DNA of 64,000 bases from the NCBI RefSeq assembly GCF_041886205.1, contig NZ_CP169029.1; one strand, given 5' to 3'. The notes under the pieces were generated by a model that worked only from the letters and a program-made list of their open reading frames with translations, was not told the DNA's origin and searched no databases. Shown here piece by piece: positions 1,581 to 23,318 of the stretch. Origin of the DNA: Escherichia coli. Its GTDB lineage: Bacteria > Pseudomonadota > Gammaproteobacteria > Enterobacterales > Enterobacteriaceae. The position numbers and the translations under genes are program-made. Each line of letters starts with the position of its first letter. Positions within the stretch are counted from its first letter, which is position 1.

Positions 1581-1603
1581 TTATTCTCTCCTGGAGTTAA
1601 AAA

Positions 1604-2986
1604 TTATTGCTGCCAACCGCCACCAAGTGCGGTATATAAAGAAATTTCGTTGACCTGACGGGCATAATTCAGGTCAAGTAAAGTTTGTCGGGTTGCAAAT
1701 AAAGAACGCTCGGCATCCAGCACTTCCAGATAACTTACCGCGCCGTGCTGATATAATGCCCGCGCCCGTTGCAGGGTAATTTGCAGCGACGCCAGATAAC
1801 GCTGTTGGGCGCTGATTTGATCGTCCAGGCTTTGACGTAATGCCAGCGCATCAGCCACTTCTTTAAAGGCGTTCTGGATTTTTTGTTCATAATTCACCAC
1901 CGACTGCTGCTGGCGAATTTCGGCGATATCCAGATTGGCCTGGTTGCGTCCAGCATTAAAAATGGGAATCTCAATTTTGGGTATAAAATTCCACATCCCG
2001 CTGCTGGCGTTAAATAATGACGATAGATCGCTACTGGCGGTTGATATTCCGCTGGTCAGGCTTATAGACGGGAAAAATGCCGCGCGTGCGGCCCCAATAT
2101 TGGCATTAGCCGCCATTAACGCGTGTTCAGCTTCCATAATATCCGGGCGCTGCAATAAGATTTGCGACGACAAGCCCGCCGGTAATTTAACGCTTTGCAG
2201 ACTGCCGCCGTTTACTGTCTGCGCTTGCGGCAGCTTGCCGTAGCTTCCCAATAACAGTTGCAATGCATTATTCGCCTGCGCCAGTTCCCCCTGACGTTTA
2301 GCGATGTCGCTGCGGGTACTTTCAATCACCCCGCGAGCCTGTTCCAGCGCCAGAACATTGCTGCTGCCGGTCAACAGTTGTTTTTCGACAAACGCATATG
2401 ACTGCTGATAATTACGCAGCGTTTCTTCGGCTATTTGCAATTGCGCATACGCCAGTTGCTGATTGAAATAGCTTTGCGCGACATTAGAAACCAGCAGAAT
2501 ATGCACCGCGCGCTGAGCTTCCTCAGTGGCTAAATAATTTTGTCGCTCGGCTTCGCTCATGTTCTTTAAGCGACCGAAAAAATCGAGGTCAAAGCTGGCG
2601 TTAAGGCCGGTCGAAAACTCCCGTGTCGTGGCGGTATTCCCTTTAAGATTACCGCTCCAGCTGCCGCTGCCCTCGCCATTGAGCTGTGGATAGCGGTCGG
2701 CATCGGTCAGACGATATTGCGCCCGTGCCTCCTGCACTTTCAGCGTCGCCATGCGCAAATCCCGGTTATTCACCAGCGCCTCGCTAATCAGCGTCTTCAC
2801 CTGATTATCAACAAAAAAGGTGCGCCAGCCCGCGTTCTGATAGTTATCTGCTGCGTTAACCAGGCCGTTCTGGTTGAGTGAGAACTGCTGCGGCACGGGC
2901 ATTGCCGGACGCTGATAATCCGGTGCCAGTGAACAACCGGTTAGCGCAAGGGCCACACAAAATGGCAGAAGTTTACAAGGAGACAT
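1604..2986 (-). CDS. cusC: Outer membrane factor CusC of the Cus efflux system
   Basis: 460-aa ORF with lipoprotein lipobox (LTGC) and OMF-family repeats; first gene of the cusCFB(A) operon. Annotated start may be a few codons different. Confidence 0.9.
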   Translation of the reverse strand: MSPCKLLPFCVALALTGCSLAPDYQRPAMPVPQQFSLNQNGLVNAADNYQNAGWRTFFVDNQVKTLISEALVNNRDLRMATLKVQEARAQYRLTDADRYPQLNGEGSGSWSGNLKGNTATTREFSTGLNASFDLDFFGRLKNMSEAERQNYLATEEAQRAVHILLVSNVAQSYFNQQLAYAQLQIAEETLRNYQQSYAFVEKQLLTGSSNVLALEQARGVIESTRSDIAKRQGELAQANNALQLLLGSYGKLPQAQTVNGGSLQSVKLPAGLSSQILLQRPDIMEAEHALMAANANIGAARAAFFPSISLTSGISTASSDLSSLFNASSGMWNFIPKIEIPIFNAGRNQANLDIAEIRQQQSVVNYEQKIQNAFKEVADALALRQSLDDQISAQQRYLASLQITLQRARALYQHGAVSYLEVLDAERSLFATRQTLLDLNYARQVNEISLYTALGGGWQQ

Positions 2987-3055
2987 AGGCTCATAATTTC
3001 TGGTGATTTTATGCCGCCAACTTTACTCGCCAGGCTCTGATTTTCCGGTGACAGA

Positions 3056-3077
3056 AAAATGACAAAATTGTCATTTT
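3056..3077. promoter_or_regulatory. Candidate CusR operator in the divergent cusC/cusR promoter region
   Basis: Palindrome AAAATGACAA-AA-TTGTCATTTT read directly in the sequence, centred between the divergent cusC and cusR starts. Confidence 0.6.
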
Positions 3078-3142
3078 GCCAATAAGCGATTGCCATCTGA
3101 TCCCGCTACTCTAGAATTGCCCGGGCAACATGCGGAGGAAAT

Positions 3143-3826
3143 ATGAAACTGTTGATTGTCGAAGATGAAAAGAAAACCGGAGAATACTTGACCAAAGGGT
3201 TAACCGAAGCCGGTTTTGTAGTCGATTTGGCCGACAACGGGCTGAATGGCTACCATCTGGCGATGACCAGTGATTATGATCTGATAATCCTCGATATTAT
3301 GCTGCCGGACGTGAACGGCTGGGATATCGTGCGCATGTTGCGTTCCGCCAATAAAGGGATGCCGATTCTGTTGCTTACCGCGCTTGGCACCATTGAACAT
3401 CGCGTCAAGGGGCTGGAGTTGGGGGCGGATGACTATCTGGTGAAGCCGTTCGCTTTTGCTGAACTGCTGGCGCGGGTGCGCACTCTCCTGCGGCGCGGAG
3501 CGGCGGTAATTATCGAAAGTCAGTTTCAGGTTGCCGATCTGATGGTCGATCTCGTCAGCCGCAAAGTCACCCGCAGCGGTACGCGCATCACGTTGACCAG
3601 TAAAGAATTTACTCTGCTGGAGTTTTTCCTTCGCCATCAGGGCGAAGTGCTGCCCCGCTCGCTTATCGCTTCGCAGGTATGGGACATGAATTTCGACAGC
3701 GACACTAACGCTATTGATGTGGCGGTGAAGCGGCTACGCGGCAAAATCGACAACGACTTTGAGCCAAAGCTGATTCAAACCGTGCGTGGCGTGGGTTACA
3801 TGCTTGAGGTGCCGGATGGTCAGTAA
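3143..3826 (+). CDS. cusR: Copper-responsive response regulator CusR (OmpR family)
   Basis: 227-aa ORF with receiver domain and winged-helix C-terminus; divergent from cusC. Confidence 0.9.
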
Positions 3827-5258
3827 GCCATTTCAGCGCCCGTTTTCGCTGGCAACCCGCCTGACCTTTTTTATCAGCCTGGCCACCATCGCGGCATTTT
3901 TCGCCTTTGCATGGATCATGATCCACTCAGTAAAAGTGCATTTTGCCGAGCAGGATATTAATGATTTAAAAGAGATTAGCGCCACCCTTGAACGGGTACT
4001 AAATCACCCTGACGAAACGCAAGCCCGACGCTTAATGACGCTGGAAGATATCGTCAGTGGTTATTCCAATGTGTTGATTTCCCTGGCAGATAGCCACGGC
4101 AAAACGGTGTATCACTCCCCCGGTGCGCCCGATATCCGCGAGTTTGCACGTGATGCCATACCCGATAAAGACGCGCGGGGTGGCGAGGTGTATCTCCTTT
4201 CCGGCCCGACGATTATGATGCCAGGGCACGGTCACGGGCATATGGAACACAGCAACTGGCGGATGATTAACTTACCGGTTGGCCCGTTGGTGGACGGCAA
4301 ACCGATTTATACGCTCTACATCGCGCTTTCGATCGATTTTCATCTTCATTACATAAATGATTTGATGAATAAACTTATTATGACCGCATCGGTAATCAGC
4401 ATCCTGATCGTCTTTATCGTGCTGTTGGCGGTACATAAAGGTCACGCGCCGATCCGCAGCGTCAGCCGTCAAATCCAGAATATCACCTCGAAAGATCTCG
4501 ACGTTCGCCTTGACCCGCAGACCGTGCCGATTGAGCTGGAACAGCTGGTACTGTCGTTCAACCATATGATCGAGCGTATTGAGGATGTCTTTACCCGCCA
4601 GTCCAATTTCTCAGCAGATATCGCTCACGAAATTCGTACACCGATTACGAATCTCATAACGCAAACGGAAATCGCCCTCAGTCAGTCGCGCAGCCAGAAG
4701 GAGCTGGAAGATGTGCTCTACTCTAATCTCGAAGAGCTGACGCGAATGGCGAAAATGGTCAGCGATATGTTGTTTCTCGCCCAGGCCGATAACAACCAGT
4801 TAATCCCCGAAAAGAAAATGCTCAACCTGGCGGATGAAGTCGGCAAAGTGTTCGATTTTTTCGAGGCATTAGCGGAAGATCGCGGCGTGGAGTTGCGGTT
4901 TGTTGGTGACGAGTGTCAGGTTGCGGGCGATCCGCTGATGCTGCGTCGGGCGTTAAGCAACCTGCTTTCGAACGCCCTGCGTTATACGCCACCCGGAGAG
5001 GCAATTGTTGTGCGCTGCCAGACGGTCGATCACCTGGTGCAAGTTTCCGTCGAAAACCCCGGGACGCCCATTGCGCCCGAACACTTACCGCGATTGTTTG
5101 ACCGTTTCTACCGCGTTGATCCTTCCCGCCAGCGAAAAGGCGAAGGTAGCGGCATTGGTCTGGCGATAGTGAAATCAATTGTTGTCGCGCATAAAGGCAC
5201 GGTTGCGGTAACGTCAGATGCGCGGGGGACAAGGTTTGTTATCACATTACCCGCTTAA
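3816..5258 (+). CDS. cusS: Copper sensor histidine kinase CusS
   Basis: ORF 3786..5258; internal ATG at 3816 gives the expected N-terminus [10 protein letters not shown] and a 480-aa product; two TM segments, HAMP and HisKA/HATPase motifs; 11-bp overlap with cusR. Confidence 0.85.
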
Positions 5259-5407
5259 TTATTCAGCAAACGGCAACTTTTATAACCAGTGTAAAAATAA
5301 CGTGCCGCAATAGTCATACCTATTAATGGTAAAAAGCTGTCACAATTCATAAAAAACCTTAATATACGCCACCCTAAACATAACCAGCGTTAATGTAAGG
5401 TTTTTGT

Positions 5408-7614
5408 GTGGACTGGCTTCTTGATGTTTTTGCTACCTGGCTCTACGGCTTAAAAGTAATCGCGATAACGTTAGCGGTCATCATGTTCATCAGTGGGCTG
5501 GACGATTTTTTTATTGATGTCGTCTACTGGGTACGCCGCATTAAACGCAAGTTGAGTGTTTATCGCCGCTACCCGCGAATGAGTTACCGCGAACTGTATA
5601 AACCAGATGAAAAACCGTTAGCGATTATGGTTCCGGCGTGGAATGAAACGGGCGTCATCGGCAATATGGCCGAGCTGGCGGCGACCACGCTCGACTATGA
5701 AAACTATCATATCTTTGTTGGCACCTACCCCAACGACCCCGATACTCACCAAACGTGCATAAGGTAGTCTGCGCGCGTCCTGGCCCCACCAGCAAAGCCG
5801 ACTGCCTGAACAACGTGCTGGACGCCATCACCCAGTTTGAGCGTAGCGCCAATTTCGCTTTTGCTGGTTTTATTCTGCATGACGCCGAAGACGTAATTTC
5901 ACCGATGGAATTGCGTCTGTTCAACTATCTGGTCGAGCGTAAAGATCTGATTCAAATCCCGGTATACCCATTCGAACGCGAATGGACGCACTTCACCAGC
6001 ATGACTTACATTGATGAGTTTTCAGAACTGCATGGCAAAGATGTTCCGGTGCGTGAAGCCCTCGCCGGACAGGTGCCCAGCGCAGGCGTCGGTACTTGTT
6101 TCAGCCGCCGCGCCGTGACCGCACTGTTAGCTGACGGTGACGGTATTGCTTTCGACGTGCAGAGTCTTACTGAAGATTACGACATTGGTTTCCGCCTGAA
6201 AGAAAAAGGTATGACGGAAATTTTTGTCCGTTTTCCGGTGGTGGACGAAGCCAAAGAACGCGAGCAGCGTAAATTTTTACAGCACGCGCGGACGTCAAAC
6301 ATGATCTGCGTGCGCGAATATTTCCCCGATACCTTTTCGACTGCGGTTCGACAAAAATCTCGCTGGATCATCGGCATTGTTTTCCAGGGCTTTAAAACCC
6401 ATAAATGGACCTCCAGCCTGACGCTGAACTACTTTCTCTGGCGCGACCGCAAAGGGGCAATCAGTAACTTTGTCAGCTTCCTCGCGATGCTGGTGATGAT
6501 CCAGCTTTTGCTGTTGCTGGCGTATGAAAGTTTGTGGCCCGATGCCTGGCATTTCCTTTCTATTTTTAGCGGCAGCGCATGGTTAATGACCCTGCTGTGG
6601 CTAAACTTTGGCTTGATGGTTAACCGCATCGTGCAGCGAGTGATTTTCGTCACTGGCTACTACGGCCTCACGCAGGGCCTGCTTTCCGTCCTGCGTCTTT
6701 TCTGGGGCAACCTGATTAACTTCATGGCCAACTGGCGCGCGCTAAAACAGGTACTCCAACACGGCGATCCACGTCGCGTCGCGTGGGATAAAACAACGCA
6801 TGACTTCCCCAGCGTGACTGGCGATACCCGCTCGTTGCGCCCGTTAGGCCAAATTCTGCTGGAAAATCAGGTCATCACTGAAGAACAACTCGATACAGCA
6901 CTGCGTAATCGCGTCGAAGGTCTACGCCTGGGCGGTTCAATGCTGATGCAGGGGCTGATTAGCGCCGAGCAGCTGGCACAGGCGCTGGCAGAGCAAAACG
7001 GCGTGGCGTGGGAATCCATCGATGCCTGGCAGATCCCTTCCTCGCTGATTGCCGAAATGCCGGCCTCCGTGGCGCTGCATTATGCGGTACTGCCGCTGCG
7101 TCTGGAAAATGATGAGTTAATTGTCGGCAGTGAAGATGGTATTGACCCGGTTTCGCTGGCGGCCCTTACGCGTAAAGTCGGACGCAAAGTGCGTTACGTC
7201 ATTGTTCTGCGGGGACAAATTGTCACAGGGTTACGTCACTGGTATGCACGCCGACGCGGTCACGATCCGCGGGCAATGTTGTACAATGCGGTTCAGCATC
7301 AGTGGCTCACGGAACAGCAGACCGGTGAAATCTGGCGGCAATATGTGCCGCATCAGTTCCTGTTCGCCGAAATACTGACCACGCTCGGTCATATTAATCG
7401 TTCAGCAATTAACGTGTTGTTATTGCGCCATGAACGCAGTTCTCTGCCGCTCGGCAAGTTTTTGGTCACCGAAGGCGTTATCAGCCAGGAAACGTTGGAT
7501 CGCGTCCTGACAATTCAACGCGAATTACAAGTTTCGATGCAATCACTATTACTCAAAGCAGGTTTAAACACAGAACAGGTTGCGCAACTGGAGTCCGAAA
7601 ATGAAGGAGAATAA
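5408..7614 (+). pseudogene. nfrB: nfrB (inner-membrane glycosyltransferase, phage N4 receptor component) disrupted by a frameshift
   Basis: Two overlapping ORFs in different frames (5408..5767, 119 aa; 5755..7614, 619 aa) together cover a GT2-type glycosyltransferase. Frame 2 stops at TAG 5765-5767 right after ...YPNDPDT; the protein resumes in frame 1 at ...NVHKVVCARPGPTSKADCLNNVL. Expected single product is about 745 aa (from memory). Confidence 0.75.
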
Positions 7615-10573
7615 CCTTAATCGCGTCATCGGATGGTCTGGTTTACTGCTGACGTCTTTATTGAGTACCAGCGCACTCGCAGACAATATCGGCACCAGCG
7701 CAGAAGAGCTGGGGCTGAGCGATTATCGCCATTTTGTTATTTATCCCCGTCTCGATAAGGCGCTGAAGGCACAGAAAAATAACGACGAAGCAACCGCCAT
7801 CCGCGAATTTGAATATATACACCAGCAGGTGCCGGATAATATTCTGCTGACTTTATACCTTGCGGAAGCCTATCGCCATTTTGGTCATGATGACCGGGCG
7901 AGGCTGTTGCTTGAGGATCAACTGAAACGTCACCCAGGAGATGCCCGACTTGAGCGCAGTCTGGCGGCTATTCCGGTTGAAGTGAAAAGCGTTACAACTG
8001 TTGAAGAACTGCTTGCCCAGCAAAAAGCGTGCGATGCTGCGCCGACCCTGCGTTGTCGCAGTGAAGTCGGGCAGAATGCCCTGCGGCTGGCACAGTTACC
8101 TGTCGCCAGAGCGCAACTGAACGATGCGACGTTTGCTGCATCGCCGGAAGGAAAAACGCTGCGAACCGATCTGCTGCAACGGGCAATCTACCTGAAACAA
8201 TGGTCACAGGCAGATACGCTATACAATGAAGCACGCCAGCAGAACACATTAAGCGCGGCAGAACGCCGTCAGTGGTTTGACGTGCTTCTTGCCGGGCAGC
8301 TGGACGATCGGATCCTGGCACTGCAATCACAGGGGATCTTCACCGATCCTCAGTCATATATTACTTACGCGACCGCGCTGGCTTATCGTGGCGAAAAAGC
8401 ACGCCTCCAGCATTATCTCATTGAAAATAAGCCGCTGTTTACCACGGACGCACAAGAGAAAAGTTGGCTCTATCTGTTATCTAAATACAGCGGCAACCCC
8501 GTTCAGGCATTGGCGAATTATACGGTGCAGTTTGCCGATAACCGCCAGTATGTTGTTGGCGCGACGCTACCGGTGCTGTTAAAAGAAGGTCAGTACGACG
8601 CAGCGCAAAAACTGCTCGCCACCCTCCCCGCCAATGAAATGCTTGAGGAGCGTTATGCTGTCAGCGTGGCGACCCATAACAAGGCTGAAGCTTTGCGTCT
8701 GGCACGATTGCTGTATCAGCAAGAACCGGCAAATCTTACCCGCCTGGATCAACTGACCTGGCAACTGATGCAGAACGAGCAGTCACGCGAAGCTGCCGAT
8801 TTATTGCTGCAACGCTATCCTTTCCAGGGCGATGCGCGTGTCAGCCAGACTTTAATGGCGCGACTGGCGTCTCTGCTGGAAAGTCATCCTTACCTGGCAA
8901 CGCCGGCGAAGGTGGCGATTTTATCGAAACCCTTACCGCTGGCGGAGCAACGTCAGTGGCAAAGTCAGTTGCCGGGTATTGCAGATAATTGCCCGGCAAT
9001 AGTTCGCTTGCTGGGCGATATGTCGCCTTCCTACGATGCTGCCGCCTGGAACCGTCTGGCAAAGTGTTATCGGGACACGCTACCCGGTGTGGCGTTGTAT
9101 ACATGGCTTCAGGCCGAACAACGACAACCGAGCGCCTGGCAACATCGTGCGGTAGCCTATCAGGCGTATCAGGTTGAGGACTACGCCACCGCACTGGCGG
9201 CCTGGCAGAAAATCAGTCTTCACGACATGAGCAATGAGGATCTGCTTGCTGCTGCCAATACCGCCCAGGCGGCAGGAAATGGTGCGGCTCGCGATCGCTG
9301 GCTACAACAGGCAGAACAACGTGGACTGGGAAGCAATGCCCTCTACTGGTGGCTGCATGCACAACGTTACATTCCTGGTCAGCCGGAACTCGCACTGAAC
9401 GATCTCACGCGCTCAATCAATATTGCGCCTTCTGCCAACGCTTACGTTGCGCGGGCGACAATTTATCGCCAACGTCATAATGTCCCGGCCGCGGTGAGTG
9501 ATTTGCGCGCCGCGCTGGAACTGGAACCGAATAATAGCAACATCCAGGCAGCGCTTGGTTACGCCTTGTGGGATAGCAGTGATATCGCACAGTCGCGGGA
9601 AATGCTCGAACAGGCGCATAAAGGGCTTCCGGACGATCCGGCACTGATCCGACAACTGGCCTACGTGAACCAGCGTCTGGATGACATGCCTGCGACGCAG
9701 CACTACGCCCGGCTAGTGATTGATGACATTGATAATCAGGCGCTGATAACCCCACTGACCCCAGAGCAAAATCAACAACGCTTCAATTTCCGCCGTTTGC
9801 ATGAGGAGGTCGGTCGCCGCTGGACGTTCAGTTTCGATTCTTCTATCGGCTTGCGTTCCGGGGCAATGAGTACCTCTAACAATAATGTTGGCGGCGCAGC
9901 GCCAGGGAAAAGCTATCGTAGCTACGGGCAACTGGAAGCCGAGTACCGCATCGGACGCAATATGCTGCTGGAAGGCGACCTGCTCTCAGTTTATAGCCGC
10001 GTCTTTACCGATACCGGAGAAAACGGGGTGATGATGCCGGTGAAAAATCCGATGTCCGGCACCGGTCTGCGCTGGAAGCCGCTGCGCGATCAGATCTTTT
10101 TCCTCGCCGTCGAACAGCAGTTGCCGCTGAACGGGCAAAATGGCGCATCCGATACCATGCTGCGCGCCAGCGCCTCATTCTTTAATGGCGGCAAATACAG
10201 CGACGAATGGCACCCGAACGGTTCAGGCTGGTTTGCCCAAAACCTGTACCTCGATGCGGCGCAATATATCCGCCAGGATATTCAGGCGTGGACGGCAGAT
10301 TATCGCGTCAGCTGGCATCAGAAGGTAGCTAACGGACAGACTATTGAGCCTTACGCTCACGTTCAGGACAACGGCTATCGTGATAAAGGCACTCAGGGCG
10401 CGCAGCTTGGCGGAGTCGGGGTCCGCTGGAATATCTGGACCGGCGAGACGCACTACGACGCCTGGCCGCACAAAGTCAGTCTCGGCGTCGAGTATCAACA
10501 TACCTTTAAGGCGATTAATCAACGTAACGGAGAGCGCAACAACGCGTTTCTCACCATTGGAGTGCACTGGTAA
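7601..10573 (+). CDS. nfrA: Outer membrane protein NfrA (phage N4 receptor, TPR-containing)
   Basis: ORF 7580..10573; internal start at 7601 gives MKENNLNRVIGWSGLLL with signal peptide and about 990 aa; overlaps the nfrB stop. Confidence 0.85.
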   Translation: MKENNLNRVIGWSGLLLTSLLSTSALADNIGTSAEELGLSDYRHFVIYPRLDKALKAQKNNDEATAIREFEYIHQQVPDNILLTLYLAEAYRHFGHDDRARLLLEDQLKRHPGDARLERSLAAIPVEVKSVTTVEELLAQQKACDAAPTLRCRSEVGQNALRLAQLPVARAQLNDATFAASPEGKTLRTDLLQRAIYLKQWSQADTLYNEARQQNTLSAAERRQWFDVLLAGQLDDRILALQSQGIFTDPQSYITYATALAYRGEKARLQHYLIENKPLFTTDAQEKSWLYLLSKYSGNPVQALANYTVQFADNRQYVVGATLPVLLKEGQYDAAQKLLATLPANEMLEERYAVSVATHNKAEALRLARLLYQQEPANLTRLDQLTWQLMQNEQSREAADLLLQRYPFQGDARVSQTLMARLASLLESHPYLATPAKVAILSKPLPLAEQRQWQSQLPGIADNCPAIVRLLGDMSPSYDAAAWNRLAKCYRDTLPGVALYTWLQAEQRQPSAWQHRAVAYQAYQVEDYATALAAWQKISLHDMSNEDLLAAANTAQAAGNGAARDRWLQQAEQRGLGSNALYWWLHAQRYIPGQPELALNDLTRSINIAPSANAYVARATIYRQRHNVPAAVSDLRAALELEPNNSNIQAALGYALWDSSDIAQSREMLEQAHKGLPDDPALIRQLAYVNQRLDDMPATQHYARLVIDDIDNQALITPLTPEQNQQRFNFRRLHEEVGRRWTFSFDSSIGLRSGAMSTSNNNVGGAAPGKSYRSYGQLEAEYRIGRNMLLEGDLLSVYSRVFTDTGENGVMMPVKNPMSGTGLRWKPLRDQIFFLAVEQQLPLNGQNGASDTMLRASASFFNGGKYSDEWHPNGSGWFAQNLYLDAAQYIRQDIQAWTADYRVSWHQKVANGQTIEPYAHVQDNGYRDKGTQGAQLGGVGVRWNIWTGETHYDAWPHKVSLGVEYQHTFKAINQRNGERNNAFLTIGVHW

Positions 10574-11464
10574 ATGCGTAAGTTCATTTTCGTATTGCTG
10601 ACACTGCTTTTGGTCAGCCCTTTTTCCTTTGCGATGAAAGGTATTATCTGGCAACCACAAAACCGAGATAGTCAGGTTACCGATACCCAGTGGCAGGGGC
10701 TGATGAGTCAGTTACGTTTGCAAGGCTTCGATACCCTGGTTTTGCAATGGACCCGTTACGGCGATGCATTTACCCAGCCAGAACAGCGCACGTTATTGTT
10801 TAAGCGTGCCGCAGCTGCGCAACAGGCTGGCCTGAAGCTGATTGTCGGGCTGAACGCCGATCCGGAATTTTTTATGCACCAGAAACAGTCGTCCGCAGCG
10901 CTGGAAAGCTATCTTAATCGCCTGCTGGCTGCCGATCTCCAGCAAGCCAGATTATGGAGCGCCGCGCCTGGCATAACGCCGGATGACTGGTACATCAGCG
11001 CGGAAATTGACGACCTGAACTGGCGCAGCGAAGCTGCCCGTCAGCCTTTGCTAACATGGTTAAACAACGCGCAGCGGCTGATTAGCGATGTTTCAGCAAA
11101 ACCGGTTTATATCAGTAGTTTTTTCGCCGGAAACATGTCGCCCGATGGCTATCGCCAACTGCTGGAACACGTTAAAGCAACCGGCGTTAATGTTTGGGTA
11201 CAGGATGGCAGCGGCGTGGATAAACTGACCGCTGAACAGCGTGAACGTTATCTACAGGCCAGCGCCGATTGCCAAAGTTCCGCCCCAGCAAGCGGCATTG
11301 TTTATGAACTGTTTGTCGCCGGCAAAGGCAAAACCTTTACAGCGAAACCGAAACCGGACGCAGAAATTGCCTCGCTGTTAGCGAAACGTTCCTCTTGCGG
11401 TAAAGACACGCTCTATTTCTCTCTGCGCTATTTGCCCGTCGCGCACGGCATTCTCGAGTATTAA
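10574..11464 (+). CDS. ybcH: Uncharacterised periplasmic protein YbcH
   Basis: 296-aa ORF with signal peptide; ATG immediately follows the nfrA stop. Confidence 0.7.
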   Translation: MRKFIFVLLTLLLVSPFSFAMKGIIWQPQNRDSQVTDTQWQGLMSQLRLQGFDTLVLQWTRYGDAFTQPEQRTLLFKRAAAAQQAGLKLIVGLNADPEFFMHQKQSSAALESYLNRLLAADLQQARLWSAAPGITPDDWYISAEIDDLNWRSEAARQPLLTWLNNAQRLISDVSAKPVYISSFFAGNMSPDGYRQLLEHVKATGVNVWVQDGSGVDKLTAEQRERYLQASADCQSSAPASGIVYELFVAGKGKTFTAKPKPDAEIASLLAKRSSCGKDTLYFSLRYLPVAHGILEY

Positions 11465-11646
11465 ATCTCCTTCAGGTAAGTCGGGTACGACCTGGCTTAC
11501 CTCTTTCGCTCTCGTCAGAATTCCATCAAGATTAATTGCTAAAAAGCATGCTAAAGAAAGAAGATCGTTATGGGCGAACGGGCCGATCACTCATGCAGGA
11601 AGCATAGATCCTTTGAGCGGAGTTTCTGATATCTGAGGAGTGCGAA

Positions 11647-12408
11647 ATGCAATTGAGCAGCAGTGAACCTTGCGTGGTGATCCTGACCGAAAAAGAGGTA
11701 GAGGTAAGCGTCAATAACCATGCTACGTTTACCCTTCCGAAAAACTACCTGGCCGCCTTCGCGTGCAACAATAACGTCATTGAACTCTCAACGTTAAATC
11801 ACGTATTAATCACCCACATCAACCGTAACATCATCAACGATTATCTGTTGTTTTTAAATAAGAACTTAACCTGTGTAAAGCCCTGGTCGCGGCTGGCTAC
11901 CCCGGTTATCGCTTGTCATAGCCGTACACCGGAAGTGTTCCGGCTAGCCGCCAACCACAGCAAGCAGCAACCCAGCAAACCCTGCGAAGCGGAGTTGACG
12001 CGCGCATTGCTTTTTACCGTATTGTCTAACTTTCTTGAGCAATCGCGGTTTATTGCCCTACTGATGTATATCTTACGCAGCAGCGTCCGCGACAGCGTCT
12101 GCCGCATTATTCAAAGCGATATTCAGCACTACTGGAATCTGCGAATTGTCGCCAGTTCGCTATGTTTAAGCCCCAGCCTGCTCAAAAAGAAATTAAAAAA
12201 CGAAAATACCAGCTATAGCCAGATTGTCACAGAGTGTCGTATGCGTTACGCCGTACAGATGTTATTGATGGATAACAAAAATATCACTCAGGTGGCGCAA
12301 TTATGTGGCTATAGCAGCACGTCGTACTTTATCTCTGTTTTTAAGGCGTTTTACGGCCTGACACCGTTGAATTATCTCGCCAAACAGCGACAAAAAGTGA
12401 TGTGGTGA
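11647..12408 (+). CDS. envY: AraC-family transcriptional regulator EnvY
   Basis: 253-aa ORF with C-terminal AraC-type HTH (…ITQVAQLCGYSSTSYFISVFKAFYGLTP…). Confidence 0.75.
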   Translation: MQLSSSEPCVVILTEKEVEVSVNNHATFTLPKNYLAAFACNNNVIELSTLNHVLITHINRNIINDYLLFLNKNLTCVKPWSRLATPVIACHSRTPEVFRLAANHSKQQPSKPCEAELTRALLFTVLSNFLEQSRFIALLMYILRSSVRDSVCRIIQSDIQHYWNLRIVASSLCLSPSLLKKKLKNENTSYSQIVTECRMRYAVQMLLMDNKNITQVAQLCGYSSTSYFISVFKAFYGLTPLNYLAKQRQKVMW

Positions 12409-12453
12409 AGGGCAAAGCGGAAACGGATAAGACGGGCATAAATGAAGAAGAAA

Positions 12454-12530
12454 TGGCGCGCCCTGCAGGATTCGAACCTGCGGCCCACGACTTAGAAGGT
12501 CGTTGCTCTATCCAACTGAGCTAAGGGCGC
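12454..12530 (-). tRNA. argU: tRNA-Arg (anticodon UCU)
   Basis: Minus-strand 77-nt sequence GCGCCCTTAGCTCAGTTGGATAGAGCAACGACCTTCTAAGTCGTGGGCCGCAGGTTCGAATCCTGCAGGGCGCGCCA with cloverleaf, UCU anticodon and encoded CCA. Confidence 0.9.
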
Positions 12531-12561
12531 GTTGATACCGCAATGCGGTGTAATCGCGTGA

Positions 12562-12589
12562 ATTATACGGTCAACCCTTGCTGAGTCAA
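12562..12589 (-). promoter_or_regulatory. Candidate sigma70 promoter for argU
   Basis: On the minus strand: TTGACT, 16-nt spacer, TATAAT, about 30 nt upstream of the tRNA 5' end. Confidence 0.45.
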
Positions 12590-12772
12590 TGGCTTTTGAT
12601 CTGGTTGCTGAACAAGTGAACGACCGCGTCTGATTTTCTGATTTATTTCGCTATAGCGGCAAACAAACACACACCGCTGCGCGTCTGAATCAAGAAAACC
12701 CGTATTTTCATGTATCAAAGTACAATTTACCGCCCTAACGGAAAATTGTCCGCTCCTATGAGACTGGTAACT

Positions 12773-13405
12773 ATGAAACCAACGTCGGTGATCATTATGG
12801 ATACTCATCCTATCATCAGAATGTCTATTGAAGTTCTGTTGCAAAAAAACAGTGAATTGCAGATTGTCCTGAAAACGGATGATTACCGCATAACCATCGA
12901 TTATCTCCGAACCCGTCCTGTTGATTTAATCATTATGGATATAGACTTGCCCGGAACAGACGGTTTTACCTTCCTGAAAAGGATCAAACAAATCCAGAGC
13001 ACAGTGAAAGTGTTATTTTTATCATCGAAATCAGAATGCTTTTATGCTGGCAGAGCGATACAAGCTGGTGCTAACGGTTTTGTCAGTAAATGCAATGATC
13101 AGAATGATATTTTTCATGCCGTTCAGATGATCCTCTCCGGATACACGTTTTTTCCCAGCGAAACGCTTAACTATATAAAAAGCAATAAATGTAGTACGAA
13201 TAGTTCAACGGTCACTGTGCTATCTAATCGTGAAGTGACCATATTACGTTATCTGGTTAGCGGATTATCTAATAAAGAAATTGCCGATAAGTTATTACTT
13301 AGCAATAAAACAGTTAGTGCGCATAAATCTAATATTTATGGCAAACTAGGTTTGCATTCAATTGTAGAGCTTATCGACTACGCCAAATTATACGAATTAA
13401 TATAA
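12773..13405 (+). CDS. fimZ: LuxR/NarL-family response regulator FimZ
   Basis: ORF 12710..13405; internal start at 12773 gives MKPTSVIIMDTHPII, 210 aa, receiver domain plus LuxR HTH. Confidence 0.8.
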   Translation: MKPTSVIIMDTHPIIRMSIEVLLQKNSELQIVLKTDDYRITIDYLRTRPVDLIIMDIDLPGTDGFTFLKRIKQIQSTVKVLFLSSKSECFYAGRAIQAGANGFVSKCNDQNDIFHAVQMILSGYTFFPSETLNYIKSNKCSTNSSTVTVLSNREVTILRYLVSGLSNKEIADKLLLSNKTVSAHKSNIYGKLGLHSIVELIDYAKLYELI

Positions 13406-13407
13406 TA

Positions 13408-13923
13408 TTAATTATAATTGATCATAAAAATCGCATCCGCTTTCGCCACACCTGGCTGAACACCGCTGGCTAACGCTCGATAATTGGCAAAAAAGTTTAG
13501 TGTGACATTGCCATTTGCATCTACTTCCTCAGTCGGGCTCGCCGCTCCCAGTGCGAGCCGGGAGCGATCGCTATTACGTAATTCGATGGCGACGGTTTGT
13601 GCCATTGCGGGATCATCCAGAGCCAGCAAGTTGGCATCGGATGCCGGCGTTCCCGTAAATAAAATCGCAACTGAACCCGGAGGACATCCCTCCAGCCGCA
13701 GGCTAAAAGGGACGAGTGCCGTGGTATCGCCAGCGTTCAGTAATTGTGTCGTAGGCCATCTGCCTAAATCTACCGTCTTATCAATATCCGCAGTGTTTAC
13801 GGTACAGGAGAAATCAACAACGTTACCGTGCAAATTGATATTAATCGTTCCCAAAGGGTCAGCTGCCCATCCACTGGAACTCCACAGTAACCCGCAGAAA
13901 CAGCTAAAGAGTACTCTTCTCAT
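13408..13923 (-). CDS. sfmF: Fimbrial minor subunit SfmF
   Basis: ORF 13408..14118; internal start at 13923 gives MRRVLFSCFCGLLWSSSGWA signal peptide and a 171-aa fimbrial-subunit fold; convergent with fimZ. Confidence 0.75.
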   Translation of the reverse strand: MRRVLFSCFCGLLWSSSGWAADPLGTININLHGNVVDFSCTVNTADIDKTVDLGRWPTTQLLNAGDTTALVPFSLRLEGCPPGSVAILFTGTPASDANLLALDDPAMAQTVAIELRNSDRSRLALGAASPTEEVDANGNVTLNFFANYRALASGVQPGVAKADAIFMINYN

Positions 13924-13933
13924 TTTCCGTACC

Positions 13934-14941
13934 TCATTGATAATCGACGCGTAAATACCCCAGCGCGCTAAACGGCCCTTCGGTCGGTTTTTGACCGGTA
14001 ATACTGATAGGCCAGGCGCGAAGTGTGACATTGGCTGCCGCAGCTGCATCCAGACGGAAAGGAATAACGCTATTGAGATCGTTAGGCGTGATCGGCGTAT
14101 CGTTCTGATCGGCGACAATAAAACCTAAATCCTGATTGTCCGACACCATCGCCTGACCAGAAACGGCACTGGCTTCCAGACGCATTGTTAAATAAGCCTG
14201 CGCAGCAACATTCGTACATTTGACCGCAATGCTCTTGGTTTGCGGCATGACACCAGCAGGCCGATTACCCGGCCCTGCCGCACTAAATAACGATGCGCCG
14301 ATATCACCAAAATCAAATTCAACAATCTGCCCGGCATTTAATTCGCAGTTTTGCGGTACTTCAACCCGGCCACCAAAACTAATGGTATAAACAGGTGTAA
14401 CCAACGGATCGTAAGGCGTTGATGTCACATACACGGTAAACATCACCTGTCTGGGGATCTCCACCATGTTAATAAAGGGACGAATAACCTTTAAACGAAA
14501 TATTAAACGAGAATCCATCACCCCGAATGGAAGGTTTTGTGAAACGTTAGGATCTGTTCCCATCCGAATATAATTTTGCGGGGGGAACTGAATATCCATC
14601 ACACTATCAACCAGACTCATCGCACCTAATAGATAATCATTTAATTGCATATATTTATAATTATCGATAGTTTCCTGAACAATAAAGTTGGTGACATAAC
14701 TACGGTATGTATAATTCACCAGCGTGCCGGGTGGACAAATTGCTGAGACACCTACCCAGCCGGATTTTTCCGGTAAAACAACAATCTGCCCTGGCTGGTT
14801 ATTGGTGCTATTAAAGATATTTGAAAGATCATAGTGTTCATCTTCTGCTACGCCAGTACTATTTGCACAAACAGTAGCCCAGGATATGTTTGCCAGACAC
14901 AAACATGCCATCGCCAATAATAATCTGCAGATTATCTTCAT
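13934..14941 (-). CDS. sfmH: Fimbrial adhesin-like subunit SfmH
   Basis: 335-aa ORF with signal peptide, FimH-like two-domain length; true start may lie a few codons downstream. Confidence 0.75.
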   Translation of the reverse strand: MKIICRLLLAMACLCLANISWATVCANSTGVAEDEHYDLSNIFNSTNNQPGQIVVLPEKSGWVGVSAICPPGTLVNYTYRSYVTNFIVQETIDNYKYMQLNDYLLGAMSLVDSVMDIQFPPQNYIRMGTDPNVSQNLPFGVMDSRLIFRLKVIRPFINMVEIPRQVMFTVYVTSTPYDPLVTPVYTISFGGRVEVPQNCELNAGQIVEFDFGDIGASLFSAAGPGNRPAGVMPQTKSIAVKCTNVAAQAYLTMRLEASAVSGQAMVSDNQDLGFIVADQNDTPITPNDLNSVIPFRLDAAAAANVTLRAWPISITGQKPTEGPFSALGYLRVDYQ

Positions 14942-14953
14942 TGATAATTTCCT

Positions 14954-17563
14954 TTATGAGCCAGGATGTGTGCAAACTGCCGAAATAACAGTGACGGCTT
15001 GCTGTAAGCTTTGCTTCGGCAATACATAGTGCGCAATGCAGCGTGAGTTCGCGCCGTCTCCCCACTGAACCAGTAATTCACCAGACAATGGCGCACCACT
15101 TAAATAAACTTGCCCGTCATCACCCACCATACTGGTTATTCCGGTACTGTTTTCCCGTACCAGTGATCCAAACGGCACCGGTTTTCCGCCCTGGGTAACG
15201 GTAATGAGCGCCCGCACGCCTATGCGGGTATCAAAATTGGCACGAACCAACGCGCCTTGCGTCGGCACAACGCTGCTAATATTTTTTTCAACATCGATGG
15301 AATTCCCCATCGTATTGGTATCAAGCGCGATACGGTTATACCGATAAACCGTGGCATACGGCATCACCGCATAGCCGCGCCAGTCAGTTAAAATGCCAGT
15401 TTGATTTTCAATGCGTACACCGCCTGCGCCAGGCGCTTTAATCAAAACATTGGTATCCCCTAAAGGCTGGCTCAGCGTTATGCCATTTTCGTGCCCGACC
15501 ACACCGCCAGACAGCTGCCAGTTAACGTCATGTTGATCACGGTCGTAGTTATACCCGACCCCCAGCGTACCGTAAGCGGCCTGCCAGTTTGCCGTGGCGC
15601 TGCCCGTATACCCATTATTCGAGGTATCACCCTGGCTTACGTGATAACTCAGGTTGTGGCCTTCCAGTAAGGTCCCACCTACACCTGCCAGCCAGCTATT
15701 TTGCCCGTTGCTGTTACGGTTGGCGTTAAAGGAGGCATAAGCGCGGTCGAGCGCATTTTCCCGGGTGTAGCGACGTTTGGTCAGAACATTGAAAGGCACT
15801 GAAACATTAAGTCCGACAATACGTTCGTTATCGGGGATCCCTACAGATTCATTCCACGAAAATGAGAGTGAATAACTGATGCCAACCCAGCTGCTGGTAT
15901 ACCCCACCTGATACCAGGTATCTGAATCCGAAGTATTCCAGTATTTTTGATGGGTACCAGAGATATAAAGCGAGCCAAAGTCATTAAGTGATTGTGAAAT
16001 ATTTAACTGCAAACGGTCTTTACGGCTAAAGCGTAAATTGTGGTAATTCACGATTATCGGTTCATCGCGATGCTCACCGTCGTAATCGTAATCATATTCG
16101 TACCCCTCCATTCGACGATACGCAACATCATCAAGGGTATAAAAACCTTGTGTCGAATAGCGGTAACCCATTAACTGAAAATTGGTGCCGAAGGTGTTCA
16201 TCGATTTCGCATAGAGGAAGCGAATGGAATCCCCCTCATGACGACTGTCGTCGGCTAACTGACTGCGCGCATGGGTCACATCCAGCGACACTGCGCCCCA
16301 GTTCCCGAGGTTGCGCCCCAGCCCTAATAAAAAGGCGGTGTAATTGGCAGATAATTGCGTCCCGCCGTAGGCAGTAAATTCCTGTGGTAAACCGCCGAGT
16401 GCCGTGCCCTGAAAAAAGAAAGGTGATGATTGCTGACTATTACCGCTACGAAAATCGCCCGCCGTCAGGTCAAATTTGAAACGCCCTTCGCGTTGTAAAA
16501 TCGGCACTGTTGAATACGGAATTGTGTAATTCTGCTGATTGCCATCGCGCTCGTCGATGGTGACATCCAGATCGCCATTTGAAGATGTCGGGTGCAAATC
16601 TGTAATTTCAAAAGCGCCGGGGGAAACATAGCTTTGATAGATAATAAAACCATTTTGCCGAATCGTTAGCTGGGCCGCCGTACGGGCAATCCCACGTACC
16701 GTTGGGGCAAATCCTTGCTGGCTATCAGGATACATATTATCGGAAGAATAAAGCCGTACACCACGAAATCCAACACCATCGAAAATATCACTTCCTGTAT
16801 TGCCGTCTCCCATTACCAGTTCACTTTTCAGCGGAATAATGGCGCGCTGTACCCAGGTGCCAATATTATTCCACTGTTCTGAATGATATCCATTTCCGCG
16901 AAAATAGTTCCAGGAACCATTGTTGCGTAAACGCCACGGGCCAATATTAATCCCGCTGAGTTCACTAAAAAAATAGCTATCGTTACCATTACCTCTGTTA
17001 CCGGTGAAATTATAATTCAGGAGTAAAGCAGGAATACCTTCATCCCACTCTTCAGGCGGAATGTAACCGTGAGCGCTACTCAACAACGCTATCTGAGGAA
17101 TAGTGATGTTCAGGCGCATCGCTGCAAAATCAAAGTTAATTGTGGCATCAGGTACAGCTTTCAGTAAATTGATGCATTTATTGTTTTGCTGCTGGGCTAA
17201 CTCGGGAAATGCACTGCTATTAAGGCCAATTCGTTCAAGGAGTACCTGGTTAAAACAGGGCATTAACCCACCTGATTTATCACCTGTATTTTCTGTTGTC
17301 GATTCAAATACGATATCCTGTGAACCAATGAACTCATCATTACGCCAGAGATCTACCCGATACACGCCCGCAGGTTGATGATTACCTCTCTCAAAGCGCG
17401 ATAAATCAGCAACGGATGTGCCATTCTCTAATAAAAATGCCGGGTTGAAATAACTTTCCGCATAGCTTAAAAAGGAGGGTAAAATGGCAAGAGATGAATA
17501 ACAAATTCCGGCCAGACACCAGGTATACCTCTGCGGAATATCCGTAGTAGTGGGTATTTTCAT
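14954..17563 (-). CDS. sfmD: Fimbrial outer-membrane usher SfmD
   Basis: 869-aa ORF of usher family size, located between chaperone and tip subunits. Confidence 0.85.
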
Positions 17564-17593
17564 AATTAGCTCTGATATTGTCAGATGATTCGG

Positions 17594-18286
17594 TTAGTTT
17601 AAGTTCACTTCTCTGACCGGGGTTACTGAACCATAATCATTAACGGTCTGAAATTTCAGCTTTCCCTGCACTCCTGAGGGTAAGGGAATTTGTGAATTAA
17701 CTCTGGGTGCAGCCATAGCATTCCCCAGTTTTTGGCTGCCCACTTGCAAGTTAACCAGGGTGACATAAAAAGGTGATGGATTATGAACATTGATATAGTT
17801 ACCGGATCGCGAAAACTTGAGTGTGTCCGGCGCTTCTGCGGGTAATTCTTGTAATTGAATTGGACGGAGAAATAACTTCATGCGCGATAAAATCGCCAGT
17901 TGCAAAACATTCCTGCCGTTCAATGCATTTTTATCTACCGAAGGGATCGTCTTAACATTCATCCAGAACAGAGACTCACGATCTGCCGCCAGCGGTGGAC
18001 CGGTGTAAATAATACGCAAAGTATTTTCGCTTTTGGGTTCACTAACAAACAGTGGCGGTGTAATGATGAATGACTTTTCTTTTACACCGCTGCTGTTTTC
18101 AATCCACGAATTGACCAGAAAGCGCTCATTGGTATGGCTATTTCTAATCCATACTGCAGTCTGTTTAGCATCAGCGGGATAAATAATACGCGTGGCACCT
18201 AATGCGATCCCTCCGGCAGCATGGGCGCTGGCCGAAATGATTAAATAAAATATAATGAGCATCAATAACTTTATTTTAGTCATCAT
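17594..18286 (-). CDS. sfmC: Periplasmic fimbrial chaperone SfmC
   Basis: 230-aa ORF with signal peptide and PapD-like chaperone motifs. Confidence 0.85.
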
Positions 18287-18505
18287 AGTTAATACGCCTT
18301 GTGTATTCCTGACGGCAAAAATAAGAAATATAAAGAAATGATTGCTTTGGTTTCTTACAACACATCATTCCCTTTTCATTTAATAAAGCGGCATGATACA
18401 AAGTGAACATGATTTCGATTTACATTGCCACCATACCGCTTCAGACAACCGGTACATTACTTTGTTATAAGACGTGATATATAATTCAAAACAACGTGGT
18501 TTTGA

Positions 18506-19048
18506 TTATTCGTATCTCATAATAAAAGTCGCGTCAGCATTTGCTTGCCCTGCTGATGCACTTGTACCGGTGCCTTTATAACGTGCAGAAAAATGAAGAA
18601 CGTTGGTCCCGGGGATCAAGTTCTGGTTGGTTGAGAAGCTATTCCCATCAGGTTTGAGAATTGCGGATGTATTATCAAGTATTTCAATACCGACACCCGT
18701 TGCTGTTGTTGTATTGGTACTGGATGCAATGGCCAATAAATTATCATTGATTGCATCAGCCTGACCAGAAAATGCAACGGCAGCATTAGCGGCAACAACA
18801 GGATCGCAGTCGTTCAACTGAATGGTGAATGGAATTAATGCAGAGGTATTACCAACAGCATTGAAAATATCGGTACGATATTGACCGAGTGTGACAACCT
18901 GGTCTACCGAGTCAGTATTCACTGAACAGGCAGCATTCACCAGTTCGCCTTCAAAGTGAATTGTACCGCCATCTACAACGGCAGCATAACTACCCGTAGC
19001 GGCGAATAGTGCGGCAGCCAGCGCAGACGAAATAAATCTTAATTTCAT
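18506..19048 (-). CDS. sfmA: Fimbrial major subunit SfmA
   Basis: ORF 18506..19081; internal start at 19048 gives [22 protein letters not shown] signal peptide and about 180 aa. Confidence 0.8.
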
Positions 19049-19519
19049 ATATATTCCTTCAATCTCATTTATCGACTCCACATCCGTATATAACCGATTA
19101 CTTTATTTAAGACACTGATAGTAGTAAAATTCCTTTTTATCCTCTAAGAATGTCTTAATTGAAAATATGCACTCTATTCTAAAAAATAGAGAGCCCCGTT
19201 AGATGAATACTTCCGCGCAAAATATATTCAACACAAATATAGACCTGAAGCGGTAAATTACCAGGCTGAAAATTCTTTTTATATTGTCAGGTATTTCTTA
19301 AATTATCTTAATCCTTAAACAAGGAAATAAATCAGTTCCAGATTTACAACGCCATCATGGACGAAAAATGAAGCTTTCAATCTCAGCGACGGTGCGCCTC
19401 ACCTTCGCAAGAGGTCGCTTCACGCGATAAATCTGAAACGAAACCTGACAGCGCGCCCCGCTTCTGACAAAATAGGCGCATCCCCTTCGACCTACGTAAC
19501 AGATGGAATCCTCTCTCTG

Positions 19520-20386
19520 ATGGCAGCAAAGATTATTGACGGTAAAACGATTGCGCAGCAGGTGCGCTCTGAAGTTGCTCAAAAAGTTCAGGCGCGTATT
19601 GCAGCCGGACTGCGGGCACCAGGACTGGCCGTTGTGCTGGTGGGTAGTAACCCTGCATCGCAAATTTATGTCGCAAGCAAACGCAAGGCTTGTGAAGAAG
19701 TCGGGTTCGTCTCCCGCTCTTATGACCTCCCGGAAACCACCAGCGAAGCGGAGCTGTTGGAGCTTATCGATGCGCTGAATGCCGACAACACCATCGATGG
19801 CATTCTGGTTCAACTGCCGTTACCGGCGGGTATTGATAACGTCAAAGTGCTGGAACGTATTCATCCGGACAAAGACGTGGACGGTTTCCATCCTTACAAC
19901 GTCGGTCGTCTGTGCCAGCGCGCGCCGCGTCTGCGTCCCTGCACCCCGCGCGGTATCGTCACGCTGCTTGAGCGTTACAACATTGATACCTTCGGCCTCA
20001 ACGCCGTGGTGATTGGCGCATCGAATATCGTTGGCCGCCCGATGAGCATGGAACTGCTGCTGGCAGGTTGCACCACTACCGTTACCCACCGTTTCACTAA
20101 AAATCTGCGTCACCACGTAGAAAATGCCGATCTACTGATCGTTGCCGTCGGCAAGCCGGGCTTTATTCCTGGTGACTGGATCAAAGAAGGCGCAATTGTG
20201 ATTGATGTTGGCATCAACCGTCTGGAAAATGGCAAAGTTGTGGGCGACGTCGTGTTTGAAGACGCGGCTAAACGCGCCTCATACATTACGCCTGTTCCCG
20301 GCGGCGTTGGCCCGATGACGGTTGCCACGCTGATTGAAAACACGCTACAGGCGTGCGTTGAATATCATGATCCACAGGATGAGTAA
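19520..20386 (+). CDS. folD: Bifunctional methylene-THF dehydrogenase/methenyl-THF cyclohydrolase FolD
   Basis: 288-aa ORF beginning [19 protein letters not shown] with conserved FolD motifs. Confidence 0.95.
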
Positions 20387-20387
20387 C

Positions 20388-20600
20388 ATGGCGACATTTT
20401 CTTTAGGTAAACATCCGCACGTTGAGCTGTGCGACTTGCTGAAACTGGAAGGCTGGAGCGAAAGCGGCGCGCAGGCGAAAATCGCGATTGCCGAAGGCCA
20501 GGTGAAAGTCGACGGCGCGGTTGAAACGCGCAAACGCTGCAAAATCGTCGCCGGTCAGACAGTGAGTTTTGCAGGTCACAGCGTACAGGTTGTTGCCTGA
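20388..20600 (+). CDS. ybcJ: S4-domain RNA-binding protein YbcJ
   Basis: ORF 20334..20600; internal start at 20388 gives the 70-aa MATFSLGKHPHVELCDLLKLEGW... product directly after folD. Confidence 0.75.
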   Translation: MATFSLGKHPHVELCDLLKLEGWSESGAQAKIAIAEGQVKVDGAVETRKRCKIVAGQTVSFAGHSVQVVA

Positions 20601-20603
20601 TCC

Positions 20604-20640
20604 CTTTCCCGGCCTGTATCAACAGGCCGGTTCTCTTTTC
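20604..20640 (+). terminator. Intrinsic terminator after ybcJ
   Basis: Hairpin CCGGCCTG-TATCAA-CAGGCCGG followed by a T-rich tract. Confidence 0.5.
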
Positions 20641-20707
20641 AGATTTTTGCCCTCTACGCCCCGTTCATCCATGCTGATAGCATCGACATTTTGCCGAAGC
20701 GACCATC

Positions 20708-21229
20708 ATGCCAACCGTTATTACGCACGCCGCCGTTCCCCTATGCATTGGTTTAGGGTTGGGTTCGAAAGTCATCCCTCCGCGTCTGTTATTTGCCGGA
20801 ATCATCCTGGCGATGCTGCCCGACGCCGACGTATTGTCGTTTAAATTTGGCGTTGCTTACGGCAATGTTTTTGGTCATCGCGGGTTTACCCATTCGCTGG
20901 TGTTTGCGTTTGTTGTCCCGCTGTTATGTGTGTTTATTGGACGCCGATGGTTCAGGGCTGGGCTGATTCGCTGCTGGCTGTTTTTAACCGTCTCGTTGCT
21001 ATCGCACAGCTTGCTGGATTCGGTAACCACTGGCGGTAAAGGCGTTGGCTGGCTGTGGCCGTGGTCAGATGAACGCTTTTTCGCTCCCTGGCAGGTGATA
21101 AAAGTCGCGCCGTTTGCATTGTCTCGTTACACCACGCCGTACGGGCATCAGGTGATTATTTCTGAATTGATGTGGGTGTGGTTGCCGGGGATGCTACTGA
21201 TGGGAATGTTGTGGTGGCGCAGACGATAA
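20708..21229 (+). CDS. ybcI: Inner membrane protein YbcI (DUF457 family)
   Basis: 173-aa hydrophobic ORF; convergent with cysS, with a hairpin between them. Confidence 0.7.
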   Translation: MPTVITHAAVPLCIGLGLGSKVIPPRLLFAGIILAMLPDADVLSFKFGVAYGNVFGHRGFTHSLVFAFVVPLLCVFIGRRWFRAGLIRCWLFLTVSLLSHSLLDSVTTGGKGVGWLWPWSDERFFAPWQVIKVAPFALSRYTTPYGHQVIISELMWVWLPGMLLMGMLWWRRR

Positions 21230-21264
21230 CCGGATGCGAAAACTCGCATCCGGCAATAGCGCAA

Positions 21265-22650
21265 TTACTTACGACGCCAGGTGGTCCCTTGCGGGCCATC
21301 TTCCAGCACGATCCCCATCTCGTTAAGACGATCACGCGCCGCATCCGCCGCCGCCCAGTCTTTCGCTTTACGGGCATCCAGACGCTGTTGAATTAACGCT
21401 TCAATCTCAGCCACTTCGCTGTCGTCTGCCTGCGCGCCGCTTTGCAGGAACGCTTCCGGTTCTTGCTCCAGCAGGCCCAATACAGCGGAAAGTTTACGCA
21501 GGTGAGATGCCATTGCATTCGCCGCTGCCATATCTTCTGCTTTCAGACGGTTTACTTCACGCGCCATATCAAACAGTACGGAATAGGCTTCCGGGGTGTT
21601 GAAATCGTCGTCCATCGCTTCAATAAAGCGCGCTTCAAACGCTTCGCCACCGGCAGGCGCAACGGTTTTATCTGTGCCGCGCAGCGCAGTGTAGAGACGC
21701 TCCAGCGCCGCACGCGCCTGCTTCAGGTTCTCTTCGCTGTAGTTCAACTGGCTGCGATAGTGGCCCGACATCAGGAAGTAACGCACGGTTTCCGCGTCGT
21801 AGTATTTCAGCACATCGCGCACGGTAAAGAAGTTACCCAGCGATTTGGACATCTTCTCGCGGTCAACCATCACCATTCCGGAGTGCATCCAGTAGTTCAC
21901 ATACTGACCATCATGGGCACAGGTGGACTGCGCGATTTCGTTCTCGTGGTGCGGGAACATCAGGTCTGAACCGCCGCCGTGGATATCAAAGTGGTTACCC
22001 AGCTGCTTGCAGTTCATGGCCGAACATTCAATGTGCCAGCCAGGACGACCCGCGCCCCACGGAGACGGCCAGCTCGGTTCGCCCTCTTTCGACATCTTCC
22101 ACAGAACGAAGTCCATCGGGTTGCGTTTGTCATCAACCACGTCAACGCGCGCGCCAGCCTGCAGCTGGTCGAGATCCTGACGCGACAGCACGCCATAAGT
22201 TGGATCGGTCGGGACGTCAAACATCACGTCGCCGTTGTCCGCCACATAAGCGTGACCTTTGGCGATCAGTTGTTCAGTGAGTTCAATAATTTCTGCGATA
22301 TGGTGCGTCGCGCGCGGCTCCATATCCGGGCGCAGAATGTTCAAAGCATCAAAATCTTTGTGCATTTCGGCGATCATGCGATCCACCAGCGCCACAAAGC
22401 TTTCGCCATTTTCATTGGCGCGTTTGATGATTTTGTCGTCGATATCGGTAATGTTGCGCACATACTTCAGTTTATAGCCGAGGAAACGCAGATAGCGCGC
22501 AACCACGTCAAAAGCAACAAAGGTACGCCCGTGACCGATATGACAGAGATCGTAAACGGTGATTCCACACACGTACATGCCGACTTCCCCGGCGTGAATA
22601 GGCTTAAATTCCTCTTTTTGGCGTGTCAGAGTATTGAAGATTTTTAGCAT
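21265..22650 (-). CDS. cysS: Cysteine--tRNA ligase
   Basis: 461-aa ORF with class I aaRS HIGH (HIGHGR) and KMSKS motifs. Confidence 0.95.
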
Positions 22651-22823
22651 CGAAGATTCCGTTTAGACATGTGTGGGTAATTGAGTTGCGTATAATACCC
22701 ATATTTCCCGCGCGAATCAGCATACATTGCGTGATGATCCGATCGTGCGGTTATGCTATAACACCACCCTATATATGACCCGAACTGGGTTGAAGCACCA
22801 ATCAAACGGAACAGGATGCAAAA

Positions 22824-23318
22824 ATGGTTACTTTCCACACCAATCACGGCGATATTGTCATCAAAACTTTTGACGATAAAGCACCTGAAACAGTTAAAAA
22901 CTTCCTGGACTACTGCCGCGAAGGTTTTTACAACAACACCATTTTCCACCGTGTTATCAACGGCTTTATGATTCAGGGCGGCGGTTTTGAACCGGGCATG
23001 AAACAAAAAGCCACCAAAGAACCGATCAAAAACGAAGCCAACAACGGCCTGAAAAATACCCGTGGTACGCTGGCAATGGCACGTACTCAGGCTCCGCACT
23101 CTGCAACTGCACAGTTCTTCATCAACGTGGTTGATAACGACTTCCTGAACTTCTCTGGCGAAAGCCTGCAAGGTTGGGGCTACTGCGTGTTTGCTGAAGT
23201 GGTTGACGGCATGGACGTGGTAGACAAAATCAAAGGTGTTGCAACCGGTCGTAGCGGTATGCACCAGGACGTGCCAAAAGAAGACGTTATCATTGAAAGC
23301 GTGACCGTTAGCGAGTAA
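22824..23318 (+). CDS. ppiB: Peptidyl-prolyl cis-trans isomerase B (cyclophilin)
   Basis: 164-aa [30 protein letters not shown]..., cyclophilin fold. Confidence 0.95.

Follow-up and report, generated by a model that had tools for sequence, protein, structure and literature searches.

The cryptic prophage DLP12 of Escherichia coli K-12 is integrated at the tRNA gene argU, a location that two later papers credit to Lindsey, Mullin and Walker in 1989 (PMC6379469, PMC2629481). The first of these papers describes a 47-bp attR that resembles the 3′ end of argU. The second describes the Salmonella phage epsilon34, which has a 43-bp attP identical to argU by a DLP12-like integrase. The gene ompT is located within DLP12, and OmpT-negative lineages are considered either never to have hosted the prophage or to have excised it (PMC5723341). 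The position of DLP12 at argU, its 47-bp repeat and the presence of ompT inside the prophage have all been published earlier. The emptiness of the argU site in some strains is likewise already known, and is a well-described and very common polymorphism.

Here, we consider this site in a 64,000-nucleotide stretch of an E. coli genome (contig NZ_CP169029.1), referred to throughout as the window. An original prediction, made from the letters of the window, proposed that envY lies only 45 bp from the 3′ end of argU and that the site is an unoccupied attB. The adjacency is borne out by ARAGORN and the list of open reading frames. The gene envY encodes an intact AraC-family regulator of 253 aa (11647..12408, + strand), appears in the open reading frame list, and is annotated as envY in a genome identical to the window. 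Its stop codon is the TGA at 12406..12408, and its product differs from K-12 EnvY by one amino acid. The argU site is bordered on its B′ side by this bacterial gene. The gene argU itself is a full-length tRNA-Arg(UCU) at 12454..12530 on the − strand, with its 3′ end at 12454. It is identical to K-12 argU at 77 of 77 nucleotides, and ARAGORN reports a single tRNA in the whole window, tRNA-Arg(tct). The spacer between the two genes, 12409..12453, is therefore exactly 45 bp.

The remaining parts of the site follow from alignment with the K-12 attL and attR junctions, which identified a 47-bp att core at 12452..12498 (− strand) as an exact match to the repeat found at both. In tRNA orientation the core reads CTTCTAAGTCGTGGGCCGCAGGTTCGAATCCTGCAGGGCGCGCCATT. 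It spans nucleotides 33-77 of argU, from the anticodon loop to the CCA, plus 2 nt downstream. A three-way alignment of attB, attL and attR places the B′ arm at 12409..12451 (no strand assigned), covering the 43 bp from the envY stop to the core, such that the 45-bp spacer consists of the B′ arm and 2 bp of the core. On the other side, the B arm at 12499..12561 (− strand) comprises the 5′ part of argU and its leader, and aligns collinearly with K-12 attL on the bacterial side. Beyond it lies a likely argU promoter at 12562..12589 (− strand), with TTGACT, a 16-nt spacer and TATAAT, proposed from a consensus match at 11 of 12 positions. The bacterial neighbour on the B side is fimZ (12773..13405, + strand), as in K-12; it is identified from the annotation of the identical genome and from K-12 gene order. 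No terminator-like hairpin was found in the 45-bp spacer. Across 12250..12800, a terminator-like site occurs only once, at 12669..12684, a count within the expectation from shuffled sequence.

The reference for the occupied site is the interval 563000-588000 of K-12 MG1655, where the gene order is fimZ, argU, the cryptic prophage DLP12, envY, ybcH and nfrA. DLP12 is annotated at 564755-586056, with 21.3 kb between both copies of the core. From the intD end, it carries intD, xisD, IS3, emrE, rusA, quuD, nmpC interrupted by IS5, essD-rrrD-rzpD, borD, nohD, tfaD, appY and ompT. The original prediction described the K-12 state correctly: DLP12 is at argU, and appY and ompT are inside its right end. 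The prophage is not uniform in length among K-12 laboratory strains. In DH1, DH5alpha, JM109, S17-1 and ER1821R, the region matching window positions 1..25000 extends over 36.3 kb rather than the approximately 46.3 kb expected from MG1655, which indicates that DLP12 is about 10 kb shorter there. This agrees with the IS5-associated deletion of DLP12 in XL1-Blue, which runs from codon 51 of intD to near essD (PMC11148124), and is not a property of the window.

Comparison with the K-12 junctions shows how the two arrangements are related. The longest exact repeat common to both junctions is 47 bp, with copies at 564755-564801 (attL) and 586057-586103 (attR). An exact search of both strands of the 64-kb window recovered one copy. 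The left flank of this single core matches attL at 60 of 60 positions and attR at 10 of 60, whereas the right flank matches attR at 52 of 53 positions and attL at 18 of 60. The B′ arm is the same sequence as the K-12 stretch between envY and the attR core, with one mismatch, and the distance is 43 bp in both. BLAST alignments give the same picture at larger scale. One match, 10555..12501 in the window, is collinear with the envY side of the K-12 prophage, and a second, 12452..14253, with its argU side. The two share 50 bp, with breakpoints at 12501 and 12452. With a single core and both flanks collinear with the bacterial arms of K-12, the proposal of an unoccupied attB holds. One qualification concerns a condition set in the original prediction, namely that envY lying immediately next to argU in the reference would tell against it. 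K-12 envY, too, has a tRNA 3′ end at a distance of 45 bp. That end, however, belongs to a 45-nt partial copy of argU within attR, 21.3 kb away from the real argU.

Phage-derived sequence was sought in several ways. BLAST with the whole 21.3-kb interior of DLP12 as query left the 64-kb window without a match. The annotation of the matching genome lists neither an integrase nor any phage gene, ompT or appY over these 64 kb, in agreement with the absences first claimed. The att region of the complete phage 2G7b matched the window at the core alone. Further, around the junction, where phage sequence or a repeat scar would have told against an empty site, the searches found only the single core. 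No scar, core polymorphism or phage remnant was found at the site. We are therefore highly confident that 12409..12530 represents a scarless B-O-B′ site, and a natural unoccupied attB for IntD-type lambdoid phages.

The phages that would use such a site can be recognised from the core that they carry. It was found in 17 phage records, at identities from 47/47 to 50/50 in E. coli phages and at 94% in Salmonella phages. These include Escherichia phage 2G7b, ev243, the PhiR series from ECOR strains, and Salmonella phage SEN22. The complete genome of 2G7b, the one record inspected for gene order, carries integrase, core and ompT in succession. The core lies 13 bp downstream of the gene for a 387-aa integrase, which is identical to K-12 IntD at 385 of 387 positions, and upstream of ompT. 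Its position between integrase and ompT in phage genomes such as 2G7b identifies ompT as phage cargo. Two further records, PP925833.1 (Kati) and PP925837.1 (Turner), annotate the 47-bp attP core as 'tRNA-Pro', which looks like a mis-annotated partial copy of tRNA-Arg.

Reciprocal exchange within a shared core is established for the lambda-family tyrosine integrases. From the structure of the site and from what is known of these integrases, we infer that the same exchange could take place in the window. An IntD-type phage would bring the same core as its attP, directly downstream of int. Reciprocal exchange within the core would then yield the order known from K-12, argU(attL)-int ... ompT-attR-envY. 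At attL, argU would regain its 3′ half from the phage-borne core, with int alongside. At attR, a 45-nt partial argU would be kept beside envY; ompT would lie at this end, joined in K-12 by appY. The window site is probably recombination-competent, and would be available for lysogeny by IntD-type phages.

The adjacency of envY and argU is deterministic, such that chance is not the issue and the frequency of the arrangement in the population is the relevant baseline. Empty sites were counted among 5,426 complete E. coli genomes with a 445-bp query across the junction, requiring contiguous coverage. The contiguous envY-argU junction is present in 2,532 of them (47%), including O157:H7 strains. 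In genomes of the K-12 type, query positions 1-290/293 match at envY and a second place matches at argU, a split that is expected from attR and attL. Occupied sites were counted with a 300-bp query across K-12 attR, comprising the right end of DLP12, the core and the envY side, and this K-12-type prophage junction is complete in 1,619 of the 5,426 genomes. Most of the remainder form a group of about 1,100, in which the argU side is matched at 90-95% identity; the one member inspected, NCTC9022, carries a decayed remnant at the argU site. The gene ompT is present in 3,095 of the 5,426 genomes; approximately 43% are without it, a share near that of empty sites. O157:H7 departs from this, having an empty argU site and ompT elsewhere. 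The window has no ompT, either at the argU site or elsewhere in its 64 kb.

The strain background of the window is that of a wild isolate. Positions 1..25000 are 100% identical to E. coli wlxctx60, isolated from the faeces of a Japanese black bear, and wlxctx60 is again the best match for 39001..64000, with a one-base difference in length. In the search with positions 1..25000, the five next-closest genomes are 99.7-99.9% identical and all are contiguous across the argU site; they are wild isolates from humans, cattle and pigs. Over the same 25 kb, K-12 strains reach 98.7% identity to the window. Two other features of the window can be recorded here. The gene nfrB (5408..7614, + strand) encodes a c-di-GMP-activated glycosyltransferase needed for phage N4 adsorption, and relative to K-12 it has a 31-bp deletion between 5748 and 5749, corresponding to nucleotides 342-372 of K-12 nfrB. 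The reading frame is shifted as a result, and the gene is marked 'frameshifted' in the annotated identical genome. In the closest relatives, the 25,000-bp query corresponds to 25,031 bp; they have thus probably kept these 31 bp, and the lesion would be strain-specific. Positions 39001..64000 contain a short element of which an E. coli genome has about 34-36 copies (median 34 places), presumably of the REP/BIME type.

That the closest sequenced relatives all have an empty site, and that the strain is a wild isolate, favours an inherited empty allele. The empty state of the window is most likely inherited, and the product of neither a recent nor an engineered deletion; we infer a lineage without a recent prophage at the argU site. 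A competing explanation is that argU in this lineage was once occupied by a prophage resembling DLP12 or 2G7b, the precise loss of which left a scarless attB. Loss could have proceeded through Int/Xis excision or through homologous recombination between the 47-bp direct repeats, and either route, the latter mediated by RecA, restores exactly the sequence observed. Consequently, sequence alone cannot separate a site that was never occupied from one that was precisely vacated. Several observations are compatible with such a history. Complete phage genomes that carry this attP are known, with E. coli recorded as the host. K-12, only about 1% diverged, is occupied, such that both states occur among fairly close relatives. 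Inducible excision of DLP12 has been reported in K-12 (PMC4632033), and the choice between 'never hosted' and 'excised' is left unsettled for Shigella and EIEC (PMC5723341). The site itself, however, carries no scar, core polymorphism or phage remnant as a trace of an earlier occupant, and since all of the closest sequenced relatives are empty too, any loss would not be recent. We regard an older, precise loss as a possibility, albeit a doubtful one.

A stronger version holds that this lineage lost an active 2G7b-type phage carrying ompT, both precisely and recently in evolutionary terms, within a continuing cycle of integration and excision under selection on OmpT, and that the empty site reflects this loss. 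Were this true, the approximately 50:30:20 split between empty sites, prophages and remnants would represent ongoing turnover under OmpT selection rather than a set of old, fixed events. We consider this version improbable.

A different origin, raised in the original prediction as one form of clean deletion, is that the window derives from an engineered K-12 strain from which DLP12 had been deleted, as in an MDS42-type reduced genome or a Delta-9 prophage-free strain. There is a superficial likeness, in that two K-12 islands, DLP12 and the RhsD element, are absent from the window. However, the deletions in reduced genomes were directed at islands missing from other strains of E. coli, and a natural strain can therefore resemble a reduced genome. 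Missing K-12 islands are accordingly no evidence of engineering, and the right test is divergence from K-12. The flanks of the core differ from K-12 at 22 of 1897 and 17 of 1755 positions (39 mismatches in 3,652 bp), a divergence of about 1%; across 25 kb, identity to K-12 is 98.7%. The wild isolate from bear faeces, by contrast, is identical to the window. An engineered derivative would be essentially identical to MG1655 or BW25113 outside its deletions; the window is not, and an engineered K-12 origin was rejected, with practically no probability left to it. The second missing island is no clean K-12 deletion, because the gap between ybbP and mnmH is filled by a different sequence of 712 bp.

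This replacement has some features of its own. The K-12 RhsD island (rhsD-ybbC-ylbH-ybbD-ylbI-ylbG) is about 7 kb long. In its place, the window has an unrelated region at 47075..47786, between mnmH (45980..47074) and ybbP (47787..50201). It contains a 51-aa open reading frame at 47414..47569 (+ strand), annotated as a type I toxin similar to DinQ. Two motifs of a hairpin followed by a T-run, CCAACTGTCATGTCGGTTTTTTT and CCGACTGTCATGTCGGTTTTTTT, also lie there and are nearly identical to each other.

Although segments bounded by repeats can in principle drop out during assembly, a 47-bp repeat does not collapse at least 20 kb of unique DNA, and the same junction occurs in 2,532 independent complete genomes, one of them identical to the window, making an assembly artefact at argU exceedingly improbable. 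Nothing is missing or misassembled at the envY-argU junction.

The unoccupied attB of the window can be set beside three known counterparts. The DLP12 site of K-12 has the same tRNA gene, an identical 47-bp core and the same arms, with fimZ-argU on one side and envY on the other. It is occupied by a 21.3-kb prophage that carries IS3 and IS5, whereas the window has a single core and no prophage DNA. The second counterpart, in NCTC9022, a strain of the B2 type, occupies the same chromosomal locus, between ybcH and argU. Its remnant is about 3.5 kb long (L006 5439..9002) and retains ompT. An integrase fragment, a tail-fibre fragment, a SAM methyltransferase and ompT are kept at the NCTC9022 site, and none of these is present in the window. 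Further, envY of NCTC9022 has been deleted save for its last 40 nt or so, which lie beside a degenerate core of 74% identity, whereas envY of the window is intact. Searched against the window, the remnant matches at the end of envY and the degenerate core only. On the other side of argU, NCTC9022 is without sfm-fimZ. The third counterpart is the attP of phages such as 2G7b, in which phage arms flank the core; in 2G7b itself these arms are int and ompT. The window carries the bacterial partner of this site.
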